A DNA stretch of 64,000 bases from an uncultured Anaerolineales bacterium (lineage in GTDB: Bacteria > Chloroflexota > Anaerolineae > B4-G1). Under the pieces are notes generated by a model, which saw only the letters and a program-made list of their open reading frames with translations, searched no databases and was not told the DNA's origin. Made by a program: the position numbers and the translations under genes. How positions within the stretch are numbered: the stretch's first letter is position 1; each line of letters starts with the position of its first letter. Below are positions 9,679-61,866 of this stretch, one piece after another. Location: positions 133 through 64,132 of the forward strand of contig CAYLPU010000011.1 in assembly GCA_964385635.1 (NCBI GenBank), read 5' to 3'.

Positions 9679-9680
9679 GA

Positions 9681-10565
9681 CTAATCTACCTCCAATTGGC
9701 ATCGGTGTTGCCACTGCTCGACTGCCTGCTTTTCCTCCTCCAGGTAGAACCGTTGCCGGGCCAGCAGCAGGTTCCAGTCCACCTGGTGTGCGTCGAACTC
9801 AGGCCCATCCACGCACACGAACTTCGCACCGTCGGTCAACTGCACCCGACAGCCGCCGCACATGCCCGTCCCATCAATCATAATCGTGTTCAGGCTGACG
9901 ATGGTGGGCACTTTGAAAGGTTCTGTCGTTGCAGCGCAGAACTTCATCATGATCGCCGGCCCGATGACCCACGCCCGGGCGATTTCTCCGTCGCGCTGTT
10001 CCAGCAACTCCTTGAGCGGTTCGGTGACTAGCGCTTTGCGCCCATAAGAGCCGTCGTCGGTGCAGACGATCAGTTCGTCGCTGACTGAGCGCATCTTGTC
10101 TTCCCAGAAGAGCAGTTCACGAGTGCGCGCCCCGATGATCGAGATGACGGTATTGCCGGCTTCTTTGAGCGCCCGCGTGATGGGGTAGAGGGGCGCGATG
10201 CCAACACCGCCCCCTACACATACGACAGTCCCGTAGTTCTTGATCTCGGTCGGATGTCCGAGTGGCCCGGTGAAAGTGGCCAATTCGTCACCCGGCTCAA
10301 GTGTCCCCATGTGCATCGTCGTCTTGCCGACCTCCTGGAAGATGAGCGTGATGGTACCCGCTTCCTGGTCGTAGTCGGCGACGGTGAGCGGTATGCGTTC
10401 TCCACGTTCGTCGACGCGCACGATGACGAACTGGCCTGCCCGTGTCTTGCGTGCCACTTCCGGTGCGGCGATGACCATCAACTTGTTGACCTCGCTGAGT
10501 ATTTCCTTGTGCAAGATTTTGTACACAGACTGCCTCCCAATCTTTTTGTGCTTCACAGTGCGCAC
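9681..10565 (-). CDS. nfnA: Sulfide/dihydroorotate dehydrogenase-like FAD/NAD-binding subunit (NfnA/SudB-type)
   Basis: 294 aa ferredoxin-NADP reductase-like fold with C-terminal GTGMCGGCRV 2Fe-2S motif. It lies directly upstream of the GltD-like partner. Confidence 0.8.
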   Translation of the reverse strand: MRTVKHKKIGRQSVYKILHKEILSEVNKLMVIAAPEVARKTRAGQFVIVRVDERGERIPLTVADYDQEAGTITLIFQEVGKTTMHMGTLEPGDELATFTGPLGHPTEIKNYGTVVCVGGGVGIAPLYPITRALKEAGNTVISIIGARTRELLFWEDKMRSVSDELIVCTDDGSYGRKALVTEPLKELLEQRDGEIARAWVIGPAIMMKFCAATTEPFKVPTIVSLNTIMIDGTGMCGGCRVQLTDGAKFVCVDGPEFDAHQVDWNLLLARQRFYLEEEKQAVEQWQHRCQLEVD

Positions 10566-30833: not shown

Positions 30834-31553
30834 CACAAGGGCCTCCCATGCTTTCTGAGCCGCTGCCTGTTCTGCCGCCTGCTTACTGCGCCCGGTTCCC
30901 TGCCCCGCCATCTCTTTGCCTAGAAGCACCTCCGCCACGAAGGTCTTGGCATGGTCAGGCCCCTTTTCGGCGGCGATGCGATAGTGAGGTGTGATCCCTA
31001 GTTCGGCCTGGCTCCACTCCTGAAGGCGGCTCTTGGAGTCCCAGTCCGCCTCTGCCGCCAGCGTTGCCTCGGCCACTGGCTTAATGAGTGGCTCAATGAA
31101 GGTTTCGGAGGCCGCCATCCCGCCGTCGAGGTAGAGTGCCCCCACGACGGCTTCGAAGGTATCACACAGATTGGCGTCTCGTTCCCGCCCTCCGCCCTCC
31201 TCCTCTCCGTGGCCCAGCCGCAACGCCTTTCCGATTCCCACCCGCCTGGCAAGTCGTGCCAGCGTCTCAGTGCGCACCAGAGCAGCTCGCAGGCGGGTCA
31301 TTTGCCCCTCGTTGAAGTCGGGGTAGTGGCGGTAGACCCATGCGCCAGCGACGAAGTCGAGCACCGCGTCACCTAAGAATTCGAGGCGCTGGTTGTCTCC
31401 AATTCCATCCTCTGGATGTTCGTTGACGTAGGAGGGATGGGTGAGGGCGCGGCAGAGCAGATCCAGGTCACGAAAGTGGTGCCTCAGTGCCTGTTGAAGG
31501 GCTTCGAGGTTGGTGGCTGAGTGCTGGATGTTGGATGTTGAACTGTTGCTCAT
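30792..31553 (-). CDS. rnc: Ribonuclease III
   Basis: NQRLEFLGDAVLDF signature plus a C-terminal dsRBD. Its ATG overlaps the upstream stop (ATGA). Confidence 0.95.
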   Translation of the reverse strand: MSNSSTSNIQHSATNLEALQQALRHHFRDLDLLCRALTHPSYVNEHPEDGIGDNQRLEFLGDAVLDFVAGAWVYRHYPDFNEGQMTRLRAALVRTETLARLARRVGIGKALRLGHGEEEGGGRERDANLCDTFEAVVGALYLDGGMAASETFIEPLIKPVAEATLAAEADWDSKSRLQEWSQAELGITPHYRIAAEKGPDHAKTFVAEVLLGKEMAGQGTGRSKQAAEQAAAQKAWEALVSKRVSSVGPPPPA

Positions 31554-32950
31554 TCCGATCCCGTTTCTCTGTGTTCTACCAGCCGGTGCTCGTATTTCTC
31601 CAATGCAGCACTAAGTGCGCTGTTGGCTTCCACGCCGCAGGCTTCGGCCAGCATCAGCAGGCTGTAGAGCGCGTCTCCCAGTTCGTCCGCCAGTTGGGGG
31701 CGGAACTGGAGGACTCGCCGCCCGTAGTCTGTGGCCAGTAATATCTCCTTTACCACCTCACCGACCTCAGAGACCAGATCGAGCGCGTGGGTGGCTGGAT
31801 CGTGCAGTAGATTGTGGCGCTGAGCGAAAGCGGCGACTTTTTGCTGCCAGTTGGCTACGGGCGGTGGGCTCTTGAACCCACTCCCGGTCAACACGACGAC
31901 CGGCACATCGCCCAGGCGGTCGCGCAAGTGATCCAGCGCCGCCACGGCAAGCGCGGAGGTCGGCTCGACGTAGACTCCCCGCCGGGCCAGTTTTCTCTGT
32001 GCGGCCAGAGTCTCTTCGTCCGGCAGGGCCAGTACCGCGCCACCGCTTCCGCGCACAGCAGACAGCACCGCCCGGCCCCAGGGTGGTGCGGCAATCCGCA
32101 CACCCTCCGCGATGGTCTCTTGCTCCTCGATTGGCTCTATGTTGGCCTCATCGCACTCCCAGGCGCGTGCTAGTGGCGCACACGCTTGTGCCTGCACACC
32201 GAGAAGACGCGGCAGCCGCTCTATGAGACCCGCCGCCAACAGCTCACTGAAGCCAGCGTGCAACCCAAGCAGCAACCCTCCTTGTCCCACTGGCACCACG
32301 ACGCTTTCTGGTGCGCGACCGTTCAACTGCTCCCACAATTCGAAGGCGATGGTCTTCATGCCCTGCGGATAGAGGGGGCTGTAGACGTGGCTGGCATAGA
32401 CAGCGCCCTCCTTGGCAGCCTGGCGCACGGCGCGAGCGGCCTCACTGCGGGGTCCGGGCACTGGCACGACCTCCGCGCCGTAGGCCGCGATCTGTGCCTG
32501 CTTGACCGGTGACGTGTGGGCCGGCACATATACGGTGGCGTGGAGGTCTGCGCGGGCGGCATAGGCCGCCAACGCAGCACCGGCATTGCCCGAAGAATCC
32601 TCGACGACATCCCGCACGCCCACTGCCTTCAGCGCCGTGACCAGCACAGTCGCGCCCCGGTCTTTGAAGGAGCCCGTGGGGTTGAGGTGCTCGGCCTTGA
32701 GGTAGATGGGGCGGTTGTGCCATTCGGCGGCGACCAACGGGGTCCAGCCCTCGCCCAGCGTCACCGGAGCCGTACCATCCAGCAAAGGCAGCGAAGCCCG
32801 GTAACGCCAGAGGGTGTGCTCTCGTTCATCCACGAGAGTTTGGTCGAAGGAGGAGACGCCCGCGATCTCCAGCGTACCGCCGCAATCACAACACCAGTGC
32901 GCGGGATCGAAAGGCCAACTCCGCGAGCAATCGCTACAGTACAGGTTCAC
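31550..32950 (-). CDS. Threonine synthase-like PLP enzyme fused to a C-terminal MazG-like nucleotide pyrophosphohydrolase domain
   Basis: N-terminal zinc ribbon YCSDCSRSW...CCDCGG. LNPTGSFKDRG PLP-lysine motif. The C-terminal roughly 100 aa are DLVSEVGEVVKEIL...LADELGDALYSLLMLAEACGVEANSALSAALEKYEHRL. A likely GTG start at 32950 overlaps the HEPN stop (GTGA). The track start is 32992. Confidence 0.8.
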   Translation of the reverse strand: MNLYCSDCSRSWPFDPAHWCCDCGGTLEIAGVSSFDQTLVDEREHTLWRYRASLPLLDGTAPVTLGEGWTPLVAAEWHNRPIYLKAEHLNPTGSFKDRGATVLVTALKAVGVRDVVEDSSGNAGAALAAYAARADLHATVYVPAHTSPVKQAQIAAYGAEVVPVPGPRSEAARAVRQAAKEGAVYASHVYSPLYPQGMKTIAFELWEQLNGRAPESVVVPVGQGGLLLGLHAGFSELLAAGLIERLPRLLGVQAQACAPLARAWECDEANIEPIEEQETIAEGVRIAAPPWGRAVLSAVRGSGGAVLALPDEETLAAQRKLARRGVYVEPTSALAVAALDHLRDRLGDVPVVVLTGSGFKSPPPVANWQQKVAAFAQRHNLLHDPATHALDLVSEVGEVVKEILLATDYGRRVLQFRPQLADELGDALYSLLMLAEACGVEANSALSAALEKYEHRLVEHRETGSE

Positions 32951-33372
32951 CTGGGCTCGCCCTCGGCACCCTCCAATACCTCCACGATCCACTGGATAAC
33001 GTGCTGCGCCTGGCGAAGCGCCTTCTCTGCGTCATCAGCGTCGAAGGCCTCGGCCGGAATTCCGCCTGGCAGCCCATTGGGATAGCGGGTGGGAATATAG
33101 TGTCGATCGAGTCCCCCTCCCACGCCAATCAGTGTCTCGAAGCGAGCGTCGTACTCGGCGGCTTGTCGGGCCAGGTCGGCCACCGAATGCCCCCACACCC
33201 TTTCCACTCCTTGGGCATACAGATAGCCCTTCAGGGCCTTCTCGCCAGCCTGCTGCGCCAGAAAGCACGTCAGGTGGTAACGCCCGCCAGCCTGGTTGTA
33301 GCGGGCATCATCAATGTCTTGCCGCGCTTGCCGCAGCCAGCGTTCGCCTTCCTCTCTCGGATCAGGCCTCAT
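32947..33372 (-). CDS. HEPN domain protein (toxin-like partner of MNT)
   Basis: An internal ATG at 33372 gives 141 aa: MRPDPREEGERWLRQARQDIDDA...EKALKGYL...DRHYIPTRYPN. The track ORF 32947..33591 is over-extended. Confidence 0.8.
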   Translation of the reverse strand: MRPDPREEGERWLRQARQDIDDARYNQAGGRYHLTCFLAQQAGEKALKGYLYAQGVERVWGHSVADLARQAAEYDARFETLIGVGGGLDRHYIPTRYPNGLPGGIPAEAFDADDAEKALRQAQHVIQWIVEVLEGAEGEPR

Positions 33373-47156: not shown

Positions 47157-50100
47157 CTACAATGCATCGAAAGGCAAGAAAGACAAAGAGGACGTAACCC
47201 CCTTGAGAATCAGGGCCATTTCAGCGGCTTTGGCCAGGGAAAGCGCTCCCTCGAACTTCTGTTTCAATTCCATGCTCTTGATTTGAAAGACAGGGGAGAT
47301 GCTTATTCTTAACAACTCGTTTTCGAACGTCATCTCATCGGCACCGCTTTCCGAAGTTTTCAACGTCAGCCGTGACTCTTTCCCGCCTTCCCGCCTCCTG
47401 ATGCTCCATCCCCTATCGTTTCTTTCGACGTAGAAGGCATTGTCGTCTTCCTGCCCAAAATCGCTTTCCATCAGGAAGAGCCTGGGCTTGTCCAGGTAGG
47501 GCTTGCCGTCGTGCACGCAGAAAGTGGCGCAGTTGCCACATTCGTTGCAGAAGTCATCTACGTGGATGATCTGCCGGACCTGCTCGATCCTGAAGACCTC
47601 TTCTCCTGTCACCGCCAACTGGCCCTGCTGGCAGGAGATCTGCGGCAGCGTCAGGTTCACAGGTGGGACAACGAAGGTGTAGTTGGCCCGGTTGGGGCAT
47701 ACCTCCACGCACTTGTCACAGAAGGTGGAGCACTGCAGACACCTGGACGCCTCGCTGAGCGCCGCCTCCTCCGTCAGCGTCGCCTCGACCAGGTCAAATC
47801 CTCCGCGTTGGGCGGGCGGGAGCATCTCTTCTTTGTGTTGCGCCACTTTTCTGGCCCGGGCGCATTTCACGCGTATGATCTCTTCCTCAGAGAGCACGGG
47901 AAGTCGGACATCTGGCCGTTCGAATGATAGGCCCAATTTTCTGCACATGGCCTCGGCGGCTCGCTTTCCATCGGCGCACGCCTCAATGATGATGGCTGGT
48001 CCCCGGACCGCGTCCCCTCCCGCGTAGACCCGATCCGCGCTCGCAAGCCCGGTTTGGGGAGCGACAGCGATGGTCCCGTTCTTGTGCAGGGAGATTTCGC
48101 TTCCGTCGAGGAAGGAGACGTCTGGGCGCTGACCGATGGCCAGGATGATGGAATCCGCCTCGATCTGGAACTCGCTCCCCTTGATGGGGACTGGTCTTCT
48201 CCTACCGTCCGCGCCGGGTTTCCCCAACTTGTTCCGAATGCACTCCAGGGCGGCGACCTGGCCCTCTCTTAGTATGACCCTGGTGGGAGAAGCCAGTTCC
48301 TCCAGGGTGATACCTTCCGCGAAGAGGCCCTCGATTTCCTCCTCCGTGGCCGGCATCTCCCGGCGGGTCCGCCGGTAGACGACCGTCACCCTTCCCCCCC
48401 CTTGGGGGGGACTGAGGGGGGGCGCGAGCCGCCAGGCTGTCCTGGCTCCGTCCATGGCGGTGTTCCCTCCCCCGATCACCAGGACCCTGGGACCCAGGTT
48501 GATTTCTTTACCCCGTGCCACCCGTTCGAGAACGTCGAGGGCCTGGAAGACACCCTGGCCCTCTTCCCCCTCAATGGACAGGCGAGTGCCATTTTGGAAT
48601 CCTGAGGCGATGTAGACTGCGTCGAAACCCTCGCTAAGGAGTCTCTCTGGAGGAGCCGTGATGGGATGAGAGAGTTCGATTTTGACTCCCAGGTTCTTGA
48701 TCCGGTCAATGTCCTCCTTGATGACCGGTTCGGGCAGTCTGAAGGCGGGGGCCAGAGCCAACATTCCTCCTGCCCTGTCTCTGGCCTCGTAGATGGTCAC
48801 CTGGACCCCGTTCAGGGCCAGGAAATAGGCCGCAGCCAGTCCCGAGGGGCCGCTGCCGATCACCGCCACGCGAACGCCAGAAACCAGGTTTTTTCCTAGA
48901 AACCTGGTTTCTATGTCATTCCCCTTTTCGGCGGCGAACCGCTTCAGTGCCCGGATGGCGACCGGTTCGTCGTAGTTGTTCCGGGTGCAGCGGGTCTGGC
49001 ACAGGTGGGTGCAGACGTAGCCGGTCACACCAGGGAGGGGGTTGCGGGAGAGAATGACCTCCAGCGCCCGGTCGTATTCCCGTTGAGCGATCAGCCAGGC
49101 GTATTCCGGCACGTCCTGAAGCACCGCGCATTGCTCCACGCAAGGGGCGGTGATGCAGTCGAAGAGGTCCAGTTTCGTTTCGACCTTGGGCAGACCGTAG
49201 GGGTGATAGTCCTTTTTGTACCGTGGGTCTTTCAGTGCCCGGGTGGCCTCCTGTTCCAGGTTGGCTAGCCTATCCTGGGCGAGTTCCTCCAGGCCTGTTA
49301 CCCCCAGGCTGCGCATGTCTGTCTCCAGGTTTTCCAGGTATTGGAGGAATCGGGAATAGCCGCCCGGTTTCAGGAGGTCGGAGACCGCGGTGACAGGCCG
49401 GGCGCCAGAGGCCAGAATGGATGTCAGATTTAGCGCGTCGGCCCCAGCGGAGAAGGAGACGTTCAGGTCTCCATCGAACTCCTGGGAGAGTTTGTGGAAG
49501 AGGTTGATGGTGATTGGATAGAGAGCCCGGCCCGACATATACATTTCATCGCCGGGGAGGGCGCCCTTGTGGTTGGCCATAGCCAGCGTGTTGCTCAATT
49601 TGACCCCAAAGGTCAGGCCCTGCTCTGCGGCAACTTCCTTCAGCGTCCTAATCAGTTCCACCGCCCGGTCGTATTGCAGGTCGTGCTCGAACACAGCGTC
49701 GGGGATGTGGGTCTGCCTGAAACCGAGACGGTCGTGGAGGATGCGCATCATCGTCTCCTGGCCCAGCAGGGTGGGGTTCAGTTTGACCGTGGTGTGCAGG
49801 CCCCTATCCTCCAGCAAGTACCTGCCGATCTGTTCAATTTCGTCGGGGGGACAGCCGTGCATCGTCGAAAGGGTGACGTTGTCGGTGAGACGAGCCGGGA
49901 TCTCAATGTCGCCGAATTGCGGAAACTTCTCTCTTAGAACCGCCTGGATTTCGGCGATCTCGTCCGATGCATCTTCCAGCCTGTCCATAAAATGGGTCAT
50001 AGGCGGGCTCTGGACTCCCTCCAGGTCGTAGCCTACGCTCATGTTGAAGATCGTTCCGAAGGGGGTGCTGTCCTCGAAGCCGAGGAGGCGACGGAGGACG

Positions 50101-50498
50101 TGAATCAGTGCCCAGGCATCGATGTACTCACAGGCGGACTGATCCAACTTGAGTTCCTGGGACCATTCGACGTTGTACCCCTCGTCCTCCATGTCAATGC
50201 AGGGCCTGGGGATATCCAGTTCATCCATGATCTGCACGGTCTTCAGTTCGATAAACCGGCCTCCGGAGAGCCAGGCGCACAAGATATTCTGGGTCAACTG
50301 GGTATGGGGACCCGCCCCCGGCCCGATGGGGGTGGCCAGGTAATGCCCGAAAAGGTTCTTGGTGGCATAGGGGCTGTCCTTCTTGGGGACGTAGAAAAGG
50401 GAGCGGTGAATCCCAAAGATAGACTGGTTCTTTTCAATCTCTGTCAAGATCCAGTTGAGAAGAACGTCGAGGGGTTGGACTTTCATTGCATCAGACAT
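47157..50498 (-). CDS. ygfK: YgfK-like putative selenate reductase subunit / Fe-S flavoprotein (DPD-like TIM barrel + GltD-like FAD/NADPH domains + ferredoxin Cys clusters)
   Basis: N-terminus SIFGIHRSLFYVP...ATPIGPGAGPHTQLTQNILCAWLSGGRFIELKTVQIMD...PCIDMEDEGYNVEWSQEL closely follows E. coli YgfK as I remember it. VAVIGSGPSGLAAA. C-terminal CLQCSTFCDKCVEVCP. Confidence 0.8.
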   Translation of the reverse strand: MSDAMKVQPLDVLLNWILTEIEKNQSIFGIHRSLFYVPKKDSPYATKNLFGHYLATPIGPGAGPHTQLTQNILCAWLSGGRFIELKTVQIMDELDIPRPCIDMEDEGYNVEWSQELKLDQSACEYIDAWALIHVLRRLLGFEDSTPFGTIFNMSVGYDLEGVQSPPMTHFMDRLEDASDEIAEIQAVLREKFPQFGDIEIPARLTDNVTLSTMHGCPPDEIEQIGRYLLEDRGLHTTVKLNPTLLGQETMMRILHDRLGFRQTHIPDAVFEHDLQYDRAVELIRTLKEVAAEQGLTFGVKLSNTLAMANHKGALPGDEMYMSGRALYPITINLFHKLSQEFDGDLNVSFSAGADALNLTSILASGARPVTAVSDLLKPGGYSRFLQYLENLETDMRSLGVTGLEELAQDRLANLEQEATRALKDPRYKKDYHPYGLPKVETKLDLFDCITAPCVEQCAVLQDVPEYAWLIAQREYDRALEVILSRNPLPGVTGYVCTHLCQTRCTRNNYDEPVAIRALKRFAAEKGNDIETRFLGKNLVSGVRVAVIGSGPSGLAAAYFLALNGVQVTIYEARDRAGGMLALAPAFRLPEPVIKEDIDRIKNLGVKIELSHPITAPPERLLSEGFDAVYIASGFQNGTRLSIEGEEGQGVFQALDVLERVARGKEINLGPRVLVIGGGNTAMDGARTAWRLAPPLSPPQGGGRVTVVYRRTRREMPATEEEIEGLFAEGITLEELASPTRVILREGQVAALECIRNKLGKPGADGRRRPVPIKGSEFQIEADSIILAIGQRPDVSFLDGSEISLHKNGTIAVAPQTGLASADRVYAGGDAVRGPAIIIEACADGKRAAEAMCRKLGLSFERPDVRLPVLSEEEIIRVKCARARKVAQHKEEMLPPAQRGGFDLVEATLTEEAALSEASRCLQCSTFCDKCVEVCPNRANYTFVVPPVNLTLPQISCQQGQLAVTGEEVFRIEQVRQIIHVDDFCNECGNCATFCVHDGKPYLDKPRLFLMESDFGQEDDNAFYVERNDRGWSIRRREGGKESRLTLKTSESGADEMTFENELLRISISPVFQIKSMELKQKFEGALSLAKAAEMALILKGVTSSLSFLPFDAL

Positions 50499-50597: not shown

Positions 50598-51126
50598 CTA
50601 CGGCACGGGCGAAACCTCAACCGTCACAGCCCCGCCGCTGGAGTCTGGCAGATAGAACGGCTCGCTCGTGGCGAGTAGTTTGCCTTCTTCCCCCTTGTAG
50701 ACCAGCCAGCGGAATGGTCCCCTGCCCAGGTCCTCCTCGGCGACCCACCACACCTGCTTGCCCACGAATTCTCTGTCCTCACCGATCACGATATCATTCA
50801 GTCCTCCCTGCCACCCCCCCCCCGACGTCATACCAGTCTCCACCCAGCCCTCTTTGGTATTGGACGACAGTCCATAGATCCTGCCATTGGATGTCGGCCC
50901 AGGGCCACGTCTGGGGGAATTGGACGCGTAACTCGATCCATCCCCCGGTGGATGGCGGTGGCGGCGGTGGGAATGGGGCGGGGGTTGGCCGGGGCGTTGG
51001 CCGGGGCGGCAAATCTGCCAGTGCGGTCTGTGTCAGCAATGGCAGCAACGCGATTGCCAGCAGGGCACAGGCGATGCCGGCGCTGAGAGTCAGATAAGTG
51101 CTTGATTTGTGGTGTTTCGGTGTCAT
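50598..51126 (-). pseudogene. Secreted Trp-rich hypothetical protein interrupted at a G10 tract
   Basis: ATG 51126 follows AAGGAGA. There is a signal peptide (...LLTQTALA/DLPP) and a Pro-rich linker. The frame is lost at the G10 run (C10 on the + strand, 50814-50823). Removing one G fuses it to track ORF 50598..50843. Confidence 0.6.
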
Positions 51127-51230
51127 TCTCACGTCTCCTTTTTTGCTGGGGTTTGCTGATGGACACTCTTGCCAGACACCCAGTATTTTATCACGAATGG
51201 CGCGAATCGGCGAATTACACGATCTGCCGT

Positions 51231-51259
51231 TTGCATCTTGTCTGGCGACACGGTATAAT
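51231..51259 (+). promoter_or_regulatory. Sigma70-like promoter for the selenoprotein gene (-35 TTGCAT, -10 TATAAT)
   Basis: TTGCAT at 51231-51236, a 17-nt spacer, then TATAAT at 51254-51259. Confidence 0.4.
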
Positions 51260-51311
51260 ACCATCAAGTTGGAAGGTTGGCCCTGTTGCTGTTGCTGGAT
51301 TGGAGAACCCG

Positions 51312-52199
51312 ATGCCTGTAGACAGTTTCAAATACTTGCCCCGCCTCATCGCTGCGTTCTACCGGATGACCGACCGCCAGCCAGAACTCCCCATCCCCTG
51401 GACATCGTTGCCACGCTCTTTATCAGACTGCAAGTTCGGGCTGGTGACGTCGGGCGGGCTGTACCACCAGTCCGTCGAGCCACCCTTTGACCTGGCGCGG
51501 GAGAGGCAGGAGCCGACGTGGGGAGATCCCACTTACCGCACCCTGCCCACCGACATCCGGCAGGAAGAGGTGGAAGCCAGTCACCTGCATATCAACACGC
51601 AGTCGGTGCTGTTGGACGTCAACATCCTGCTGCCTATCCGCCGCTTCCAGGAGTTGGCCGTCGAGGGGCGCATAGGTGGCCTGGCGAAACACGCTTACTC
51701 CTTCATGGGCTACCAGGGGTTCCCGCCGGACACGATCGCCTGGCGGGAGACCTACGGTCCCCAGGTGGCTGAGAGGCTCAAAGCCGAGGAGGTGGGCTGC
51801 GTGTTGCTCACCCCCGCCTGACCAGACTGCGCCGTCAACGTGCCCGTGCTGGCACGGACGCTGGAGGCCGCCGGCCTTTCCACGATCCTGGTGACAAATA
51901 TGCCCTTCTGGGCGGAAAGAGTCGGCGTGCCGCGCACGTTGGCCGTCGAGTTCCCCTTCGGCCACACGCTGGGCCGGCCCCACGATACGGCCCAGCAAAT
52001 GCGGGTGGTCCGCCAGGCGCTGGAGGTGCTGGAAACGGCGGAGGCTCCCGGCACGATCGTGCACTCCCCGGAGACGTGGCCCGTGCCCCGGAGAGAGGCG
52101 CTCAAGGGCTGGCAGCCGGAGGCGCCGTCGCCCATCATCCAAATACTGGCTCCCCGCTTCCGCGAGATGGTGCGACAGCGGCGGCAACATAAAGCGTGA
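51312..52199 (+). CDS. Glycine/sarcosine/betaine/D-proline reductase selenoprotein B (GrdB/PrdB) family protein; selenocysteine at TGA 51819-51821
   Basis: Track ORFs 51102..51821 and 51840..52199 share a frame and are separated only by the TGA plus 6 sense codons. Read-through gives GCVLLTPA-U-PDCAVNVPVLARTLEAAGLSTILV (U-x-x-C). ATG 51312 follows GGAGAA. Confidence 0.7.
51833..51860 (+). promoter_or_regulatory. SECIS-like stem-loop 11 nt downstream of the UGA
   Basis: CGTC-AA-CGTGCC [cgtgct] GGCACG-GACG gives 10 bp with an AA bulge and a 6-nt loop containing GU. Confidence 0.4.
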
Positions 52200-53144: not shown

Positions 53145-53816
53145 ATGCTAGTCGTATCAGAGGCGTGGAAGGCTGCCTATCCTGGAGCAGTGGTGGGCAA
53201 CCTGGTGATGCACAACGTTTCCAATCCAGAGTATCACCCTGTGCTTGATAGGTCTAAAGACGAACTAGAGAATCGGCTATGAGCCCGGTTTCACGATAAG
53301 GCGGACCTGAAGACCCTGGAACCCATCCAGGCGTACGGTGTCTATTTCAAGCGGTACAGGAAGACCTATCCTGTCTACCTTCAACTTGAGTCAGTCGTCC
53401 TTAAAGGCAAGTCAATTCCTCGCGTCGCCGCGCTCATTGAAGCGATGTTTATGGCTGAGCTCAAGAACTTGCTCTTGACGGCCGGGCATGACCTGGAAGC
53501 CTTGCAGATGCCGGTAACGCTTGACGTATCAGACGGCGGTGAGTGCTACACCCGGCTCAATGGGCAGGAACGGGTGCTGAAGCCTGGCGATATGATGATG
53601 GCCGATGCTCAGGGTGTCATCTCCAGCGTGCTCTACGGGCCAGACCATCGCACACGGATAACATCCGACACCCGGCACGTTTTCTTCGCGGTCTATGCGC
53701 CGTCAGGTATTGGGGAACGGGCGGTGTACCAGCACCTGCGGGACATTCAGGCGAACGTTATGCTCGTCGCGCCGGAGGCCGAGGTGGAACCGCTGAAAGT
53801 TGTGGTGGCCGCGTGA
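53145..53816 (+). pseudogene. B3/B4 tRNA-binding-domain protein with in-frame TGA at 53280-53282
   Basis: ATG 53145 follows AAGGAGG. MLVVSEAWKAAYPGAVVGNLVMHNV...ELENRL*ARFHDK...IQAYGVYFKRY... continues in the same frame into track ORF 53445..53816. Confidence 0.55.
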
Positions 53817-54027: not shown

Positions 54028-56832
54028 TTGTCCACTCCAACCGAATCCAAAACCCGAAAAGATCTCATTGATCCCGCCTTGGAAAAAGCAGGATGGGGGA
54101 AGGTCGGCGAATCTGACCTGATTGGCATCGAAATCCCCGTGGACGGGTTCGATCCCCGGGCGTGGGAGGTACTTGAGGCCAGGCTGAGGCGCTTGGGCGA
54201 GGCTGGTCTTTCCTACGACGTCGATCTGCCCGAAGGCGTCAGCGATTACGTCCTCTACCGTCCCAACGGCGAGATCATCGCCGTGGTAGAGGCCAAACGC
54301 ACCAGCGTTGATCCCCGGCTGGCCCAGGCCCAGGCTGAGTTCTACGTCACCGAACTCGAGAAGCAGCAGAGTTTCCGCCCCTTCGCCTTCATGACCAACG
54401 GGTACGACATCTACTTCTGGGACGTGGGCCGGGCCAACAAACGATTGGTGTACGGTTTCTTTTCCCCCGCCGATCTGGCCAATCTGCTCTACAGCCGGCA
54501 GAACCAGACACCCCTGACCGAGGCCCCGATCGACACCGCCATCACCGATCGCGTGTATCAGCAAGAGAGCATCCGCCGGGTGTGTGAGGCCTTTGAGCAG
54601 GGTAAGCGCAAGGTCTTGCTGGTGATGGCTACCGGCACCGGCAAGACCCGCGTAGCGATGTCGCTGGTAGACATCTTCCTGCGCACCAACCAGGCGCGGC
54701 GGATTCTGTTCGTCGCCGACCGGGATGCGCTGGTAAAACAAGCCGAGACGGAGGGATTTCACGATCATATCCCGGATGAACCCTGCACCCGCATCTACAC
54801 CCACAGAATTGATAAGACGAACCGTCTCTACGTCGTCACGCTGCAGACGCTGAGCAAGTGCTTCGAACAGTTTACGCCCGGCTTCTTTGACCTGATCATC
54901 TTCGACGAAGTCCATCGCTCCATTTTCAACAAGTGGAACGAGGTGCTCCACTACTTCGACGGTCGTATGATTGGGCTGACCGCCACTCCTGCTGACTTCA
55001 TTGACCGCAACACCTTTCTCGAGTTCGAGTGCCACGACGAGACGCCGACCTTCCTGTATGAGTACGACGACGCGATCAGAGACGGCTACCTGGTTGACTA
55101 CAGCCTATACGCGGCGCGGACGAGGTTCCAGCGCCAGGGCATCCGGGGCGTTGACCTGAGCGAGGAGGAGCGTTACGCCCTGATTGAGCAGGGACTGGAT
55201 CCCGATAACATTGACTTCTCCGGCACCGATCTGGAGAAGAACGTCAGCAACCGCGACACGCTGCGCAAGCAGTGGGAAGAGATCTGGGAAGTCTGTCACA
55301 AAGACAAATCGGGGCAACTTCCTGGCAAGACGATCGTCTTTGCCATGACCCAGAAGCACGCCCTGCGCCTGGCGGATGTGTTCGAGGAGATGTATCCCCA
55401 ATATCCCGGCCTGGTGCAGGTGATCACCTGTAAGTCTGAGTATAAAGGCACGCTGATCAAGAAGTTCAAGAAGAAGAGTCTGCCCCGTTTCGCCATCTCT
55501 GTAGACATGCTGGAGACCGGGGTGAATGTGCCGGAGGTGGTCAACCTGGTCTTTATGCGGCCAATCCATTCCCGGATCAAACTAGAGCAGATGATCGGCC
55601 GGGGCACCCGCAGCCACGCGACCTGCAAACACCCAGAATGGTTACCCGATGGTCACAAGAAGGAGTTCCAGATCATTGACTTTTGGGAGAACGACTTCAG
55701 TAAACGTCCGCAGGAGCAAGTGGCCCAGAGCCTGCCGGTGCTGGTGACCATCTTCAACACCCGCCTCAAGTTGTTGGAACTATACCTGGCAGATCAGCAA
55801 TCGGACGATGCCCGGTGGGTGATCGCCGACTTGCGCGCCCAGATCGCGCTTATCCCCATCGATTCCTTCTCGGTCAAGCGGGTCTACCCCGAGATCAAGC
55901 GGGCCTGGCAGGACTCGTTCTGGCGCTACCTCACCCCGGACAGGCTAACGTTTCTCAGGCTGAAGGTAGGGCCGTTGCTGCGGTATGCACCGGGCGTGGA
56001 CGTGCAAGCGGCCACGTTTACCAGCAAGGTGGAGCGGCTGAAGCTCCAAATCCTGACTGGCCGAGACCCCTCCGCCACAGCCCAATCCATCGCCGAGGAC
56101 GTCAGCCGGTTGCCGGAGTTCGTCTACGAAGATTCGCAGCGCGAGCGGGCCGCCAGGCTGTGCCTCACGCCCCAGTTGCAAACGGCCACCGTGGCTCAAC
56201 TGAACCAGGTGATTGAAACACTGGCCGACCAGATGAAGAACCGGCGAGCCAAGCCCAACACCTTCCTGGAGCTCGACCTGCCCGACTTCGTCGAAATGCG
56301 CGGCTACATCTTGCTATACGGCGGCAGCCAGCCGGTGTACGTCGAGGAGTACCGCCAGCGCGTCGAGCAGCGAATTCTCGACCTGGCCGCCGACCATCCC
56401 ACCGTCGAGGCCATTGATCGCGGCGAACCGGTCACGGACCTGCAATTGATCGAACTGGAACGCACCTTGCGGCAGGAGTTGGGCGGCGGCGACGTGGAAC
56501 TATCGGAACCCAACATTCGGAAAGCGTACGGGCTCAAGGTGGGCAGCCTGCTGGAGTTTCTGCGTCGCCTGCTGGAAATCGAGGGCATCCCCGATTATGG
56601 TGACATCGTGCGCCGCCAGTTCGAAGGATACATCGCCGGGCATCCCTTCAACGGGGATCAGATCCGCTTCCTGCGAGTGGTGCAGAACGTCTTCTTGCAA
56701 AGACGCCGCCTGGAATTGGCCGATCTGTACGGACCACCGCTGACCCGCTTCGGCCAGGATGCGGTCGAGCGGTTGTTCACTACGGAAGAAGTGAGTCAAG
56801 TGCTGGAATTCGTTGACTCACTGACTGTGTAG
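54028..56832 (+). CDS. hsdR: Type I restriction enzyme R subunit (EcoEI-type C-terminal domain)
   Basis: TTG start. N-terminal nuclease region DYVLYRPNGEIIAVVEAKR. Helicase motifs MATGTGKT and FDEVHRS. A long helical C-terminus. Confidence 0.9.
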   Translation: MSTPTESKTRKDLIDPALEKAGWGKVGESDLIGIEIPVDGFDPRAWEVLEARLRRLGEAGLSYDVDLPEGVSDYVLYRPNGEIIAVVEAKRTSVDPRLAQAQAEFYVTELEKQQSFRPFAFMTNGYDIYFWDVGRANKRLVYGFFSPADLANLLYSRQNQTPLTEAPIDTAITDRVYQQESIRRVCEAFEQGKRKVLLVMATGTGKTRVAMSLVDIFLRTNQARRILFVADRDALVKQAETEGFHDHIPDEPCTRIYTHRIDKTNRLYVVTLQTLSKCFEQFTPGFFDLIIFDEVHRSIFNKWNEVLHYFDGRMIGLTATPADFIDRNTFLEFECHDETPTFLYEYDDAIRDGYLVDYSLYAARTRFQRQGIRGVDLSEEERYALIEQGLDPDNIDFSGTDLEKNVSNRDTLRKQWEEIWEVCHKDKSGQLPGKTIVFAMTQKHALRLADVFEEMYPQYPGLVQVITCKSEYKGTLIKKFKKKSLPRFAISVDMLETGVNVPEVVNLVFMRPIHSRIKLEQMIGRGTRSHATCKHPEWLPDGHKKEFQIIDFWENDFSKRPQEQVAQSLPVLVTIFNTRLKLLELYLADQQSDDARWVIADLRAQIALIPIDSFSVKRVYPEIKRAWQDSFWRYLTPDRLTFLRLKVGPLLRYAPGVDVQAATFTSKVERLKLQILTGRDPSATAQSIAEDVSRLPEFVYEDSQRERAARLCLTPQLQTATVAQLNQVIETLADQMKNRRAKPNTFLELDLPDFVEMRGYILLYGGSQPVYVEEYRQRVEQRILDLAADHPTVEAIDRGEPVTDLQLIELERTLRQELGGGDVELSEPNIRKAYGLKVGSLLEFLRRLLEIEGIPDYGDIVRRQFEGYIAGHPFNGDQIRFLRVVQNVFLQRRRLELADLYGPPLTRFGQDAVERLFTTEEVSQVLEFVDSLTV

Positions 56833-56855
56833 CAGACCTGCCAGGTCCGAGTAAA

Positions 56856-56919
56856 TTGCCCTTCTTTGGATATTGTGGTACAATGTGATAAAGCGTTGTT
56901 TTTGTGATCTTTTCACAAA
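56856..56919 (+). promoter_or_regulatory. Internal promoter (-35 TTGCCC, extended -10 TGgTACAAT) plus 7-5-7 palindrome TTTGTGA-N5-TCACAAA upstream of the ATPase gene
   Basis: TTGCCC at 56856-56861, 17 nt, then TGGTACAAT at 56876-56884. The palindrome arms are at 56901-56907 and 56913-56919, between the promoter and the RBS AAGGAGAAGG. Confidence 0.4.
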
Positions 56920-56948
56920 TAGACACAATTATAATCAAGGAGAAGGCC

Positions 56949-58262
56949 ATGTTGGTCGAATTCAGCGTCGGAAATTATCGCTCGTTTCATGCCCCGGTCA
57001 CGCTGAGCATGCAAGCGGCAAAACTCCGCTCCAGCGACAAGCGCCTGGACGAGCACAACGTTTTCCAGGCTGATCGTCTCAGCCTATTGCGCAGCGCGGC
57101 GATTTATGGCGCAAACGCCAGCGGCAAGAGCAATCTGATCCAGGCGATGGCGTTTATGCGCCGTTTCGTCCGGCAATCTTCCCGGGAATCCCAGGCCGGA
57201 GAGCCAACCGGCGTGGAACGCTTTCGTTTGAGCACGGCTACTCGAGACAAGCCATCCTGTTTCCAGATTATCTTCCGTCTGGATGACCGACGCTACCGCT
57301 ATGGTTTCGAGATAGACGAGGAACAGGTACGCGCTGAGTGGCTGTACCACACAGGACAGCGCGAAACTCGCCTGTTCATCCGCGAGGGAGCGCAGTACGA
57401 TATTTCGAGTGTGTTCAAGCCAGGACGCGGGCTGACGGAACGCACTCGTAATAACGCCCTGTTCCTTTCTGTTGCCGCTCAGTTCAACGTCCGGCTGGCG
57501 GTGACCCTTCTTGAATGGTTCAGGCAGGGTTTCAACATCATCTCTGGCTTGGATGATACTGCCTATGTTGGGTTCACGTTGAGACGTTTTGATACGGATG
57601 AATCCTTCCGGCAGCGCGTGCTTGCCTTCGTGCGCGAGGCGGACCTGGGGATTGCGGATATTCACGTTGAGAGACTGCCCCTTGCAGAAGCCCCGATTCC
57701 CGAAGAGGTACAATATCTATTGGCGCAGGTGGCGAGAGAACAGGGGAGGAGCGGGGAAGAGCTTTTAGTGAGTCGGCCAAAAACCACGCACCAGGTTTTC
57801 AACTCGGAACAGAGCGTAGCAGGTTGGGAGACGTTCGATATGGAAAAACAAGAATCGCAGGGGACGCAGAAAATCTTTAACCTGTCCGGCCCACTGCTGG
57901 ATACCCTGGAAGGGGGCAAATTGCTGGTCATTGACGAGATGGAAGCGCGGCTGCATCCCTTCATCACCCGCGCCGTGATTCAGTTGTTCAATTCGCCGCA
58001 GACGAACCCGCGCAACGCCCAGCTTGTCTTTGCCACCCACGATACCAGTTTGCTCAGTCACCGCTTTTTCCGCCGTGATCAAATCTGGTTCACCGAAAAA
58101 GACCAATATGGCGCGACTGACATGTATTCGCTGGCCGAGTTGCAGGTGCGCAATGACGCCTCGTTCGACAAGGACTATATCGCCGGCAAGTACGGGGCTA
58201 TTCCGTTCATCGGCGGATTACACAGCCTGTTCGAGGAGCATCCTGATGGCCAGAAAGCCTAA
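56949..58262 (+). CDS. AAA/ABC-type ATPase (AAA_15/AAA_21-like), partner of RloB
   Basis: MLVEFSVGNYRSF...IYGANASGKSN (Walker A)...LLVIDEMEARLHP (Walker B)...ATHDT. Confidence 0.85.
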   Translation: MLVEFSVGNYRSFHAPVTLSMQAAKLRSSDKRLDEHNVFQADRLSLLRSAAIYGANASGKSNLIQAMAFMRRFVRQSSRESQAGEPTGVERFRLSTATRDKPSCFQIIFRLDDRRYRYGFEIDEEQVRAEWLYHTGQRETRLFIREGAQYDISSVFKPGRGLTERTRNNALFLSVAAQFNVRLAVTLLEWFRQGFNIISGLDDTAYVGFTLRRFDTDESFRQRVLAFVREADLGIADIHVERLPLAEAPIPEEVQYLLAQVAREQGRSGEELLVSRPKTTHQVFNSEQSVAGWETFDMEKQESQGTQKIFNLSGPLLDTLEGGKLLVIDEMEARLHPFITRAVIQLFNSPQTNPRNAQLVFATHDTSLLSHRFFRRDQIWFTEKDQYGATDMYSLAELQVRNDASFDKDYIAGKYGAIPFIGGLHSLFEEHPDGQKA

Positions 58263-58881
58263 ACCGAGCGGGCGTGAATACTTGCCGGACAAGGGCCGGC
58301 CATTGGGACGCCGCCAGGTCAATGTGCGCCCCCCGCGGCCTCGGTTCCTGATCGTGTGTGAGGGGAGCAAAACCGAGCCGAACTACTTTCGGCGCTTTCG
58401 CATCAACATCGACGTGGTGGACCTGAATGTGATCGGATTGGGAGACCACACGTTGAGCCTGGTGCAACGCACCTGCGAGTTGATGCGGCAGGGCGACTAT
58501 GCACAGGTCTGGTGCGTCTTTGACCGCGACAGCTTCCCCGCCGAGCGGTTCAACGAAGCCCTCAACCAGGCCCGGCTGCATGGCATCCGAACCGCCTATT
58601 CCAACGAAGCCTTTGAACTCTGGTATCTGCTCCACTTTGATTACCACGACACCGCCCAATCGCGCACGCGCTACCAACAGATGCTTACCCAACGACTGGG
58701 AAAGCCATATCGGAAAAACGCTCCCGATATGTACAACCTGCTCAAAGAACGGCAAACGGATGCCACTCGCAACGCCCTGCGGCTGCTTGATTCCTACGGC
58801 CCCAACCACAACCCGGAGCGTGACAATCCCTGCACGACCGTGCATCAATTGGTGGAAGAACTGAATCGCTGCGTTCGCTGA
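58246..58881 (+). CDS. RloB-like protein
   Basis: ATG 58246 overlaps the ATPase gene by 17 nt. FLIVCEGSKTEPNYF...VWCVFDRD...YSNEAFELWYLLHF. The track ORF 58024..58881 is over-extended. Confidence 0.85.
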   Translation: MARKPKPSGREYLPDKGRPLGRRQVNVRPPRPRFLIVCEGSKTEPNYFRRFRINIDVVDLNVIGLGDHTLSLVQRTCELMRQGDYAQVWCVFDRDSFPAERFNEALNQARLHGIRTAYSNEAFELWYLLHFDYHDTAQSRTRYQQMLTQRLGKPYRKNAPDMYNLLKERQTDATRNALRLLDSYGPNHNPERDNPCTTVHQLVEELNRCVR

Positions 58882-58904
58882 ATCTCTCGTTGTCATAGTG
58901 AGGT

Positions 58905-60614
58905 GTGATGCTCACCGACCCCAAACTTCGCTCTCAAGTAGACCAACTGTGGGATAAACTCTGGACAGGCGGCCTCTCGAACCCACTCGACGCCATCGAG
59001 CAACTGTCGTACCTGTTCTTTCTCAAACGGCTGGACGACGTCGAGAACCGGAACGAACGCCAGGCCCAGCGGCGCGGTCAGCTCTATCTACCCCGCATCC
59101 CGATGGAGAAACGCTGGGGACATTGGACGAACTTCGAGGCGGGCAAGGCGCTCGCCCACGTGAAGGAGGTGGTTTTCCCCTGGTTCAAGGAAATGGGGGA
59201 GGGGGGCAGTTCCTTCGAGCGGTACATGAAAAACGCCGAGTTCAAGATCAACAAGCCCAGCCTGCTGATCGAAGCCTGCCAGATGATAAACCAGATGCAG
59301 ATCTCGGCCCAGAACCAGGATGTGCAGGGCGACTTGTACGAGTACCTGTTGAGCAAACTGAACACCGCCGGGCGCAGTGGCCAGTTCCGCACGCCGCGCC
59401 ACATCATCCGTTTGATGGTGCAGATGATCGCACCCCGGCCAGGCGAGCGGGTCGGCGACCTGGCGGCGGGCACCTGCGGCTTCCTGGTAAACGCTTACCA
59501 GTATATCCTGGAGCAGCACACGTCTCCCGACATCCTGGAATACGACGAGCAGGGCTGGCCCCACAACCTGGTCGGTGACCTGCTGACAGACGAGCAGCGG
59601 GTCTTCCTGCAAGGGGAGGCCTTCCGTGGCTACGACAACGACTCCGGGATGACCATACTGCGCATCGGCTCAATGAACCTGATGTTGCATGGCATCGAGT
59701 ACCCTCGCTTTTTTTACATGGACACGCTCTCCAAGGATTTCACCGAGGCGCGCGACTACGACGTGATCCTGATGAACCCGCCCTTCAAGGGGGCGGTGGA
59801 CAAGGGTAGCGTCAGCGACACACTGCCGGGCAACACCCGCAAGTCGGAGTTACTCTTCGTGCACCTGATCCTGCGGGCGCTCGACATGGGCGGGCGCTGC
59901 GCGGTGATCGTGCCCGATGGGGTGCTCTTCGGCTCCAGCCGGGCACACGTCGAACTGCGCCGGAAACTGATCGAGGAGAACCGGCTGGACGGCGTCGTCT
60001 CCATGCCCGGCGGCGTGTTCAAGCCCTACGCGGGCGTCTCGACGGCGGTGCTGCTTTTCACCCGTGGCGCGACGACCGATCGCGTATGGTTCTACGACAT
60101 GGCCCACGACGGCTTTTCGCTGGACGACAAGCGGCAGCCCGTGCCAGAGAACGACATCCTCGATATTCTGGACTGCTGGCACAACCGGCACGACGCCGCC
60201 TTCCAGGCCGCACGCCAGACCCGGCTGGAGGAACTGCAAGCGCAAGTCGCCCCCCTGAAAGCCGAACGGTTGAGACTGCAAGGCGAGATCAACCGGCTGA
60301 CCTTCGAGAGCGCCATCGCCCCCGATTCTGCTCTTTCCCGTCATTCCGAGGAGCGAAGCGACGAGGAATCTCCCCGCGCCGCATCGGACGCCGCCAACGC
60401 CGAACTGGCCGACCTCGAAGCCCGGATCGCCCCCCTCCAGGCGCAGATGGACCAATTGACCCGCCAGTTCTGGGTCACCATTGGAGCAGGTCAAGGCCAA
60501 CAAGTACGACCTCTCCGCCAGCCGCTACCGGCAGGTGGAGCAGGACGAAGCCTATTACGAGAAGCCGCAGGTGACGATGGAGCGGTTGCTGGAGTTGGAG
60601 CGGGTGATGGGTGA
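58905..60614 (+). CDS. hsdM: Type I restriction-modification N6-adenine DNA methyltransferase subunit M (C-terminus frameshifted; native stop would be 60652-60654)
   Basis: HsdM_N-like N-terminus and LMNPPFKG. After about 60480 the conserved tail EQVKANKYDLSASRYRQVEQDEAYYEKPQVTMERLLELERVMGEEV... lies in the +1 frame. Confidence 0.85.
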   Translation: MMLTDPKLRSQVDQLWDKLWTGGLSNPLDAIEQLSYLFFLKRLDDVENRNERQAQRRGQLYLPRIPMEKRWGHWTNFEAGKALAHVKEVVFPWFKEMGEGGSSFERYMKNAEFKINKPSLLIEACQMINQMQISAQNQDVQGDLYEYLLSKLNTAGRSGQFRTPRHIIRLMVQMIAPRPGERVGDLAAGTCGFLVNAYQYILEQHTSPDILEYDEQGWPHNLVGDLLTDEQRVFLQGEAFRGYDNDSGMTILRIGSMNLMLHGIEYPRFFYMDTLSKDFTEARDYDVILMNPPFKGAVDKGSVSDTLPGNTRKSELLFVHLILRALDMGGRCAVIVPDGVLFGSSRAHVELRRKLIEENRLDGVVSMPGGVFKPYAGVSTAVLLFTRGATTDRVWFYDMAHDGFSLDDKRQPVPENDILDILDCWHNRHDAAFQAARQTRLEELQAQVAPLKAERLRLQGEINRLTFESAIAPDSALSRHSEERSDEESPRAASDAANAELADLEARIAPLQAQMDQLTRQFWVTIGAGQGQQVRPLRQPLPAGGAGRSLLREAAGDDGAVAGVGAGDG

Positions 60615-60663
60615 GGAAGTAAGAGATCTTCTTGGTTACCTTGAAGTAGAGTGAGACACTAAA

Positions 60664-61866
60664 ATGCCAGGCACTTCGCGAGGAAATTGGCGTTGGGCAA
60701 GACTGCGAGACGTTTGTGAGACAACGAGTGGCGGGACACCTTCTCGTAGCGTTGCCGCCTACTACAACGGCAGCATTCCTTGGGTGAAGTCTGGGGAACT
60801 GAACGATGGACCAATCTTCCAGACACAGGAGAGGATTACCGAAGCAGCGGTTGCCGACTCGAGCGCGAAGTCTTTCCCATCAGGTACTCTATTGATTGCA
60901 TTGTATGGTGCAACGGTTGGAAGGCTTGGGATTCTGAGAATAAATGCTGCCACAAACCAAGCTATATGCGCCATCTTTCCCAACGAAGATGTCGCCCGTG
61001 ATTTCTTGTTCTTCTACTTGCTGAGGCAACGTGACAATCTGATCGAGAGTAGGACCGGTGGTGCTCAACCAAACATCAGCCAATCTACAATCCGCAACCT
61101 ACCAATCCTCCTTCCCCCCCTCCCCGAACAAAAGCGCATCGCCGCCATCCTGGCCAAAGCGGATCGGTTGCGCCGCCTGCGCCGCACCGCCCGCGACTTC
61201 AGTGATACCTACCTGCAATCGGTGTTCGTTCACATTTTTGGTGATCCAAGTAGCAATCCAAAAGAGTGGGATGTTGTCCCGATCGAGAAAGTGCTCTCCA
61301 AGGATCGGGGTGGGACTCGGACCGGGCCTTTTGGCAGCTCGCTTAAGCGAAACGAGTATGTTGAGCAGGGAATACCTGTATGGGGCATTGACAACGTGAG
61401 GGAAAACGAGTTTGTCGAAGCGGGTTCACTGTTCATCACACCATCAAAGTACAGTGAGTTGCCAAGGTACACAGTAGAGGATGGTGACATTCTTATATCG
61501 CGGGCAGGCACGGTGGGACGGATGTGTGTAGCGCGTCCGGAGCAGTATCCATCTATCATTGGAACCAACTTAGTGCGGGTCACTCTAGATACTTCAGCAG
61601 TTCTTCCAGAGTACTTCACTGCGCTTTTCACATATTTCGCTGGCAGGGTTGGACGTCTGAGTAGTGGTGGTACTGCATACTCCTTCATAAACCCGAGGAC
61701 ACTCAAGTCCCTGGAAATACCGTTTCCCCCTCTTGCCCTCCAGCAGAAATTCGCCCACATCGTCCACAAATTCGAGCGCTTGCGCGCCCAGCAGCGCGAA
61801 GCCGAACGCCAGGCGGAGCATCTGTTCCAAACGCTGCTGCATAGGGCGTTTCGGGGGGAGTTGTGA
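60664..61866 (+). CDS. hsdS: Type I restriction-modification specificity subunit S
   Basis: Two target-recognition domains are separated by conserved helices LPPLPEQKRIAAILAKADRLRRLRR and FPPLALQQKFAHIVHKFERLRAQQREAERQAEHLFQTLLHRAF. Confidence 0.9.
   Translation: MPGTSRGNWRWARLRDVCETTSGGTPSRSVAAYYNGSIPWVKSGELNDGPIFQTQERITEAAVADSSAKSFPSGTLLIALYGATVGRLGILRINAATNQAICAIFPNEDVARDFLFFYLLRQRDNLIESRTGGAQPNISQSTIRNLPILLPPLPEQKRIAAILAKADRLRRLRRTARDFSDTYLQSVFVHIFGDPSSNPKEWDVVPIEKVLSKDRGGTRTGPFGSSLKRNEYVEQGIPVWGIDNVRENEFVEAGSLFITPSKYSELPRYTVEDGDILISRAGTVGRMCVARPEQYPSIIGTNLVRVTLDTSAVLPEYFTALFTYFAGRVGRLSSGGTAYSFINPRTLKSLEIPFPPLALQQKFAHIVHKFERLRAQQREAERQAEHLFQTLLHRAFRGEL

Follow-up and report, generated by a model that had tools for sequence, protein, structure and literature searches.

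Selenoproteins listed as "Proline reductase PrdB" rank with the most abundant selenoprotein families in surveys of environmental bacteria. A Sargasso Sea survey found 42 such genes, with a UxxC motif (PMC1088965), and the GOS survey recorded 235 forms with selenocysteine (Sec) and 110 with cysteine (PMC2398784). PrdB is also listed for Anaeromyxobacter and Geobacter, neither of them a Stickland fermenter, and selenoproteins have been recorded in Chloroflexi (PMC1794560). UxxC is the PrdB motif of the selenoproteome literature generally (PMC1088965, PMC13188914). The environmental surveys did not tell orphan homologues apart from true proline reductase and gave the orphans no function.

We analyzed a window of 64,000 nucleotides of DNA from an uncultured Anaerolineales bacterium, in which positions 51312-52199 (+) hold, we conclude with high confidence, a single 295-residue selenoprotein gene of the GrdB/PrdB superfamily, its UGA170 recoded via a downstream hairpin and its product an orphan PrdB-like UxxC enzyme. 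Two ORFs, 51102..51821 and 51840..52199 (+), are present here in one common frame. Translation of 51312-52199 gives 296 codons; the sole internal stop is the TGA at 51819-51821, and the frame closes with another TGA at 52197-52199. From the internal TGA it is six sense codons (CCA GAC TGC GCC GTC AAC) to the GTG at 51840, and the context at the TGA reads ...GCVLLTPA*PDCAVNVPVLARTLEAAGLSTILV. We take the ATG at 51312 as the true start because a GGAG sequence lies upstream of it, homologues begin with M-x-VDSF, and a database protein identical to the N-terminal part (P0003) is exactly 169 residues long; Sec is therefore residue 170 of 295. Matches found by tblastn in 80 genomes cover residues 1-295. 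The elements of the gene are:

51302..51305, + strand: Shine-Dalgarno-like GGAG, 6 nt 5' of the ATG start, read from the sequence
51312..52199, + strand: complete coding sequence of the PrdB-like selenoprotein, 295 residues including Sec170, stop codon TGA 52197-52199
51819..51821, + strand: in-frame UGA, read as selenocysteine 170; TGA in 78/78 loci, Cys in relatives
51828..51830, + strand: TGC codon of Cys173, the U-x-x-C partner; Cys in 74/74 aligned genes
51833..51860, + strand: extended hairpin of the original prediction, a minimum-energy fold whose outer 4 bp (51833-36/51857-60) are specific to the window
51839..51856, + strand: conserved SECIS core, a 6-bp stem (51839-44/51851-56) with the 6-nt loop CGUGCU (51845-50)
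51840..52199, + strand: 119-residue "second ORF" of gene callers, actually residues 177-295 of the same protein

The original prediction had described two ORFs in one frame, parted by a TGA and six sense codons, whose fusion gives a 295-residue protein with the context GCVLLTPA-U-PDC and Sec at residue 170; translation from the ATG at 51312 bears out each of these points. It had further held that the second ORF has only a GTG start and no Shine-Dalgarno sequence, and the 20 nt that precede the GTG at 51840 contain nothing of the GGAG/AGGA type. Its expectation that gene callers would split the gene is borne out on a large scale, as public databases hold hundreds of 169-residue and ~119-residue pieces. 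A protein search returned 1,470 relatives. Among the best 120, almost every one has a length of exactly 169 residues and few are complete, indicating that they were cut at the TGA codon. With the C-terminal 125 residues as the query we obtained 856 proteins, the best 120 of which are ~119-residue pieces mostly labelled "hypothetical protein"; one split pair has neighbouring NCBI locus tags (GY832_39810 and GY832_39805).

For family assignment, we searched with the fused protein, replacing the internal stop with Cys. Pfam GRDB (PF07355) matched at 30.7 bits against a cut-off of 22, with residues 35-167 aligned to positions 221-345 of the 347-position model, so that the match stops two residues before the UGA. 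The best NCBIfam match was PrdB TIGR04483 (E = 1.3e-41, 142.6 bits, 212/238 model positions), followed by GrdH, GrdF, the selenoprotein-B subfamily and GrdB, and all five scored below their curated cut-offs, including the PrdB equivalog (142.6 vs 300 bits) and the selenoprotein-B subfamily TIGR01918 (36.3 vs 65.45 bits). These matches confirm membership of the GrdB/PrdB family as originally proposed. By BLASTP, the protein shares 33% identity over 209 residues (E = 3e-40) with P0160, a 241-residue bona fide PrdB that itself scores 453 bits against the 300-bit TIGR04483 cut-off, and U170 and C173 align with C151 and C154 of that protein.

Comparison with the described groups places the protein more closely. 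It resembles PrdB of the Clostridium sticklandii and C. difficile type (TIGR04483) in that this is its best-scoring family and the UxxC lies at the homologous position, but it differs in length (295 residues rather than 241), having extra N- and C-terminal segments, and in its surroundings, with no prdA, prdC or other prd genes nearby and no conserved neighbourhood. Its hosts are mainly uncultured Anaerolineae, unlike the Stickland-fermenting clostridia that carry PrdB. With the GrdB/GrdF/GrdH group (PF07355, TIGR01918) it shares a GRDB domain above cut-off, and the GrdH, GrdF and GrdB models align across the Sec column; unlike the ~435-residue GrdB proteins, however, it represents only their C-terminal half, and its UxxC is without the third Cys of the GrdB motif UxxCxxC (PMC13188914). 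It also resembles the PrdB UxxC selenoproteins of the environmental surveys, in being a stand-alone PrdB homologue with Sec and Cys variants; the survey proteins are abundant in non-clostridial environmental bacteria. It is with this survey category that the protein most plainly belongs; having likened the two by description, we infer that they form the same clade.

We next consider the gene neighbourhood. In the window, the selenoprotein gene is accompanied by a divergent YgfK equivalog, a short-chain dehydrogenase, a B3_4-domain ORF and a type I restriction-modification locus, and none of these neighbours recurs beside the homologues in which we sought them. The called genes within 10 kb include no Gly_reductase, GRDA or PrdC family member and no grdA, grdE, grdC or grdD. 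When neighbours were clustered de novo across 77 loci, the commonest family, a GDPD phosphodiesterase, was present in only 20 loci; the other recurrent neighbours were an ABC ATPase, an acyl-CoA ligase, a deacetylase, a ferredoxin-like protein, peptidase M3 and LarA-like proteins, and no recurrent family across these loci was prd- or grd-related.

Several other loci in the window were recorded alongside. The divergent YgfK neighbour (47157-50498, -; 1113 residues) matches TIGR03315, "putative selenate reductase subunit YgfK", at 1018.7 vs 835.3 bits; it has a selenium-linked name and lies 0.8 kb from the selenoprotein gene, a pairing that other species do not retain. A further GltD/GltA-type NADPH-dependent glutamate-synthase-like Fe-S flavoprotein (8233-9714, -; TIGR01316, 551.8 vs 471.75 bits) is related to the C-terminal half of this YgfK protein. 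The restriction-modification locus spans 54028-61866 (+), with hsdR at 54028-56832, hsdM at 58908-60614 and hsdS at 60664-61866; between hsdR and hsdM sit an AAA_21 ATPase gene (56949-58262) and a RloB-family gene (58246-58881). At 53145-53816 (+), a 45-residue ORF is followed by the 123-residue B3_4-domain ORF, and the two could be halves of a single gene, divided by a frameshift or a different kind of recoding. A 480-residue protein encoded at 31550-32992 (-) has a PLP-dependent (PALP) domain and, at its C terminus, a MazG pyrophosphohydrolase domain.

The protein could in principle be the PrdB subunit of a genuine D-proline (or glycine-type) reductase, with PrdA/GrdE and the electron-transfer partners encoded elsewhere in the genome. 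The rank of TIGR04483 among the family models, the identity to a true PrdB that takes in the redox motif, and the many relatives that JGI names "D-proline reductase (dithiol) PrdB" all speak for this reading. We nevertheless consider it unlikely, given a score of 143 bits that lies far under the 300-bit equivalog cut-off, extensions at both termini relative to the 241-residue PrdB, reductase partner families missing from the 10 kb around the gene, and a commonest neighbour across the 77 loci that is a phosphodiesterase. The sub-cut-off score, together with the lack of PrdA/GrdE, GrdA and PrdC nearby and of any conserved neighbour, leads us to describe the protein as a PrdB-like orphan, not a D-proline reductase. 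The original GrdB/PrdB naming is thus justified as far as "PrdB-like", but not as "proline or glycine reductase".

The assignment of the gene as a single PrdB-like selenoprotein gene requires that the TGA be read through. We collected 80 homologous loci (40-85% identity) from species-representative genomes, mostly of Anaerolineae and other Chloroflexota but also of Holophagales and Thermoanaerobaculia (Acidobacteriota), Acidimicrobiales (Actinomycetota) and deltaproteobacterial MAGs. The motif could be located in 77 of the 80 and, with the window added, the aligned codon is TGA in 78/78 loci, followed each time by P-[D/E/L]-C; 17 independently assembled contigs carry the identical protein. A codon alignment of 74 genes has no further in-frame stops. 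Upstream of the UGA, pairwise differences at the three codon positions are 0.32/0.26/0.59 and amino-acid identity is 57%; downstream, the figures are 0.35/0.27/0.59 and 56%. This matching pattern on both sides indicates that the 125 downstream codons are under the same protein-coding selection as the 169 upstream. Codons 171-176 hold to P-D/E-C-x-x-N but switch freely between synonyms (GAC/GAT 34/26, TGC/TGT 50/24); since the amino acids are conserved while synonymous sites vary, this stretch is translated, which excludes a separate ORF starting from the GTG. At the positions around the UGA (51816-51824 and the corresponding sites in homologues), GCC and GCT are strongly preferred as the preceding codon, the first downstream base is C throughout, and CCG is favoured as the following codon, a pattern that may represent a local context effect on recoding efficiency.

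These data bear directly on the reading of the TGA as a true stop, whether it ends a 169-residue protein that is followed by a re-initiated 119-residue protein from the GTG at 51840, or marks a pseudogene or an assembly error. Gene callers produce exactly such a split in nearly all public records, and a GTG is available six codons past the TGA. But the same TGA recurs in every scored locus and in the independently assembled contigs, the intervening codons are conserved at the amino-acid level, the GTG has no Shine-Dalgarno sequence, and codon 177, GTG in the window, is GCG, which is no start codon, in six homologues. Homologues with Cys at the UGA column are single full-length polypeptides, so the family does not end here as two proteins. 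We regard a true stop as highly improbable.

Returning to the selenoprotein reading, we examined the Sec column in full-length relatives. An exhaustive profile search with a full-length Cys homologue (P0001, which reads LTVTCPDC at the motif) found 1,081 relatives among cluster representatives, and we aligned 40 that are full length. Their consensus is LLxPxCPxC...ARxLExxGIxTV. The Sec column is Cys in 30/40, mostly within CxxC, W in 1/40 and G in 2/40, and the position three residues later, that of Cys173, is Cys in 32/40. Together with the pairing of U170 and Cys151 of the bona fide PrdB, this shows that residue 170 lies in the Cys/Sec column of the family. The database relatives P0004 and P0142 show Trp at the Sec column, most likely through a pipeline that translated TGA with another genetic code rather than as real Trp variants.

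An AlphaFold model of P0001 is of moderate quality (mean pLDDT 67, pTM 0.71) and has the motif where strand 163-167 passes into helix 171-186, its best-predicted region (pLDDT 82-94). We found no relative with a solved structure in a PDB sequence search; phosphotriesterase matches at E ~0.002 were dismissed as weak and as covering a generic alpha/beta segment. A Foldseek search of the same model against the PDB gave nothing below E = 0.02, with TM ~0.2.

The bacterial SECIS model of Zhang and Gladyshev, as given in PMC13188914, specifies a 3-9 nt loop, a 4-16 bp stem, a G in the first two loop positions, a distance of 16-37 nt from the UGA and an energy of -7.5 kcal/mol or lower. Support for a hairpin from the window sequence alone is marginal: the hairpin at 51833-51860 (28 nt) has the lowest energy of any fold of its segment, -13.0 kcal/mol (z = -2.0, equalled by 8/200 shuffles), and the 71-nt stretch after the UGA folds no better than shuffles (z = +0.7), so we turned to comparative analysis. 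Using RNAalifold on 77 aligned sequences, which start 3 nt upstream of the TGA and end 59 nt downstream, we obtained a consensus of a single hairpin, pairing 51839-51844 with 51851-51856 around the loop 51845-50, in which the core-stem cells are paired in ~99% and the loop is conserved as CGUGYU. Compensatory double changes occur at two core pairs, C-G to U-A in 4 sequences and U-A to C-G in 6, and each of these last six has a Val codon turned into an Ala codon (GUG to GCG), with GCA changed to GCG in the facing arm. In the 74-gene codon alignment, codons 177-179 are always GTG CCC GTG, with zero synonymous variation, the lowest three of 143 conserved columns; residues 176, 180 and 181 likewise rank within the lowest seven columns (hairpin codons vs the rest, Mann-Whitney p = 7e-5). 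This suppression of synonymous variation points to selection on the RNA and not on the protein.

Like bacterial SECIS elements, the hairpin lies directly downstream of the UGA and inside the coding region, and its core falls within all constraints of the bacterial model (PMC13188914), with a 6-nt loop, a 6-bp stem, G-U at loop positions 2-3, a stem starting 17 nt and a loop starting 23 nt after the UGA, and an energy of -8.8 kcal/mol. The original prediction of a 10-bp bulged SECIS-like stem 11 nt after the UGA is therefore right about a real, SECIS-type hairpin but too generous about its extent, as the conserved part is 6 bp and begins at 17 nt. We rejected the 4-bp lower stem (51833-36/51857-60) as a conserved feature, since it pairs in only 34-52% of the 77 homologues. 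In Rfam searches, neither gathering nor permissive thresholds yielded a credible match to the hairpin, whether to a SECIS family or to any other. In two deltaproteobacterial homologues (L087 10493-10558 and L088 10493-10558), the TGA and U-P-L-C are kept with a different hairpin of 8-bp stem and 3-nt loop, which suggests that the SECIS was remodelled in their lineage.

Less probable still than a true stop is decoding of the TGA as an ordinary amino acid (Trp or Gly) through an altered code or near-cognate read-through without selenium, for which the W entries P0004 and P0142 could be cited, since these are most simply products of another translation table, Cys at 30/40 beside W at 1/40 and G at 2/40 is the signature of Sec/Cys exchange, the hairpin is under RNA-level selection at SECIS distance, and TGA is a normal stop that terminates 23/43 long ORFs in the window, the selenoprotein gene itself included, and 24/74 homologues, which excludes a reassigned code.

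We also searched the available DNA for the machinery of Sec insertion. With ARAGORN we detected 0 tRNAs across the window; all homologous loci together yielded 21, none of them for Sec. Searches for selA, selB and selD by tblastn (E. coli probes) gave no match in the window and 1.3 Mb of homologue flanks, too little sequence to speak for absence, and Pfam scans of ten large window ORFs identified no selA, selB or selD. A search of the window and homologous-locus DNA for the same loop and stem after a TGA returned only the PrdB-like genes and four unconvincing matches, and scanning the window for C/T/S-x-x motifs at in-frame TGAs returned 120 matches, too noisy for use.

By analogy with SECIS-directed recoding, a ribosome arriving at UGA170 would meet the hairpin 17 nt downstream, which would recruit SelB with Sec-tRNA(Sec) so that Sec is inserted; the TGA at 52197 has no such hairpin and ends the protein. 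By the P0001 model, Sec170 and Cys173 would form a U-x-x-C pair at a beta-strand/helix junction, homologous to the PrdB redox pair. A mechanism of the PrdB/GrdB type is likely, in which the selenolate would attack the bound substrate and Cys173 would resolve the adduct to a selenenyl-sulfide, to be re-reduced by a thiol or dithiol donor. This chemistry is extrapolated purely from homology, at scores that miss the curated PrdB (143 vs 300) and selenoprotein-B (36 vs 65) cut-offs.

The Anaerolineae-centred clade has segments of its own, an N-terminal M-x-VDSFKYLPR and a C-terminal WQPxxPSPI. With Sec in 78 species, a solitary gene and distinct termini, we judge the prospects evenly balanced that this clade is a functionally distinct selenoenzyme, one acting independently of any pyruvoyl PrdA/GrdE subunit and on something other than D-proline or derivatives of glycine. 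If so, it would be among the most widespread uncharacterised selenoenzymes of environmental bacteria.

The finding is the recognition, in a new host, of a family known from surveys since 2005, with a well-supported SECIS and no new mechanism. In practical terms, the 169- and 119-residue ORFs are to be merged as one 295-residue selenoprotein. The same split error affects hundreds of public records from Anaerolineae and related MAGs, where the active-site half is carried as "hypothetical protein", and the conserved string AACGUGCCCGUGYUGGCRCG, 14 nt after the TGA, is a possible simple flag for correcting them. The presence of the gene means that selenocysteine machinery is very probably maintained by the host and by no fewer than 78 related species, and it is a further indication that orphan PrdB-like proteins with UxxC form a large, functionally uncharacterised family outside the Stickland fermenters.
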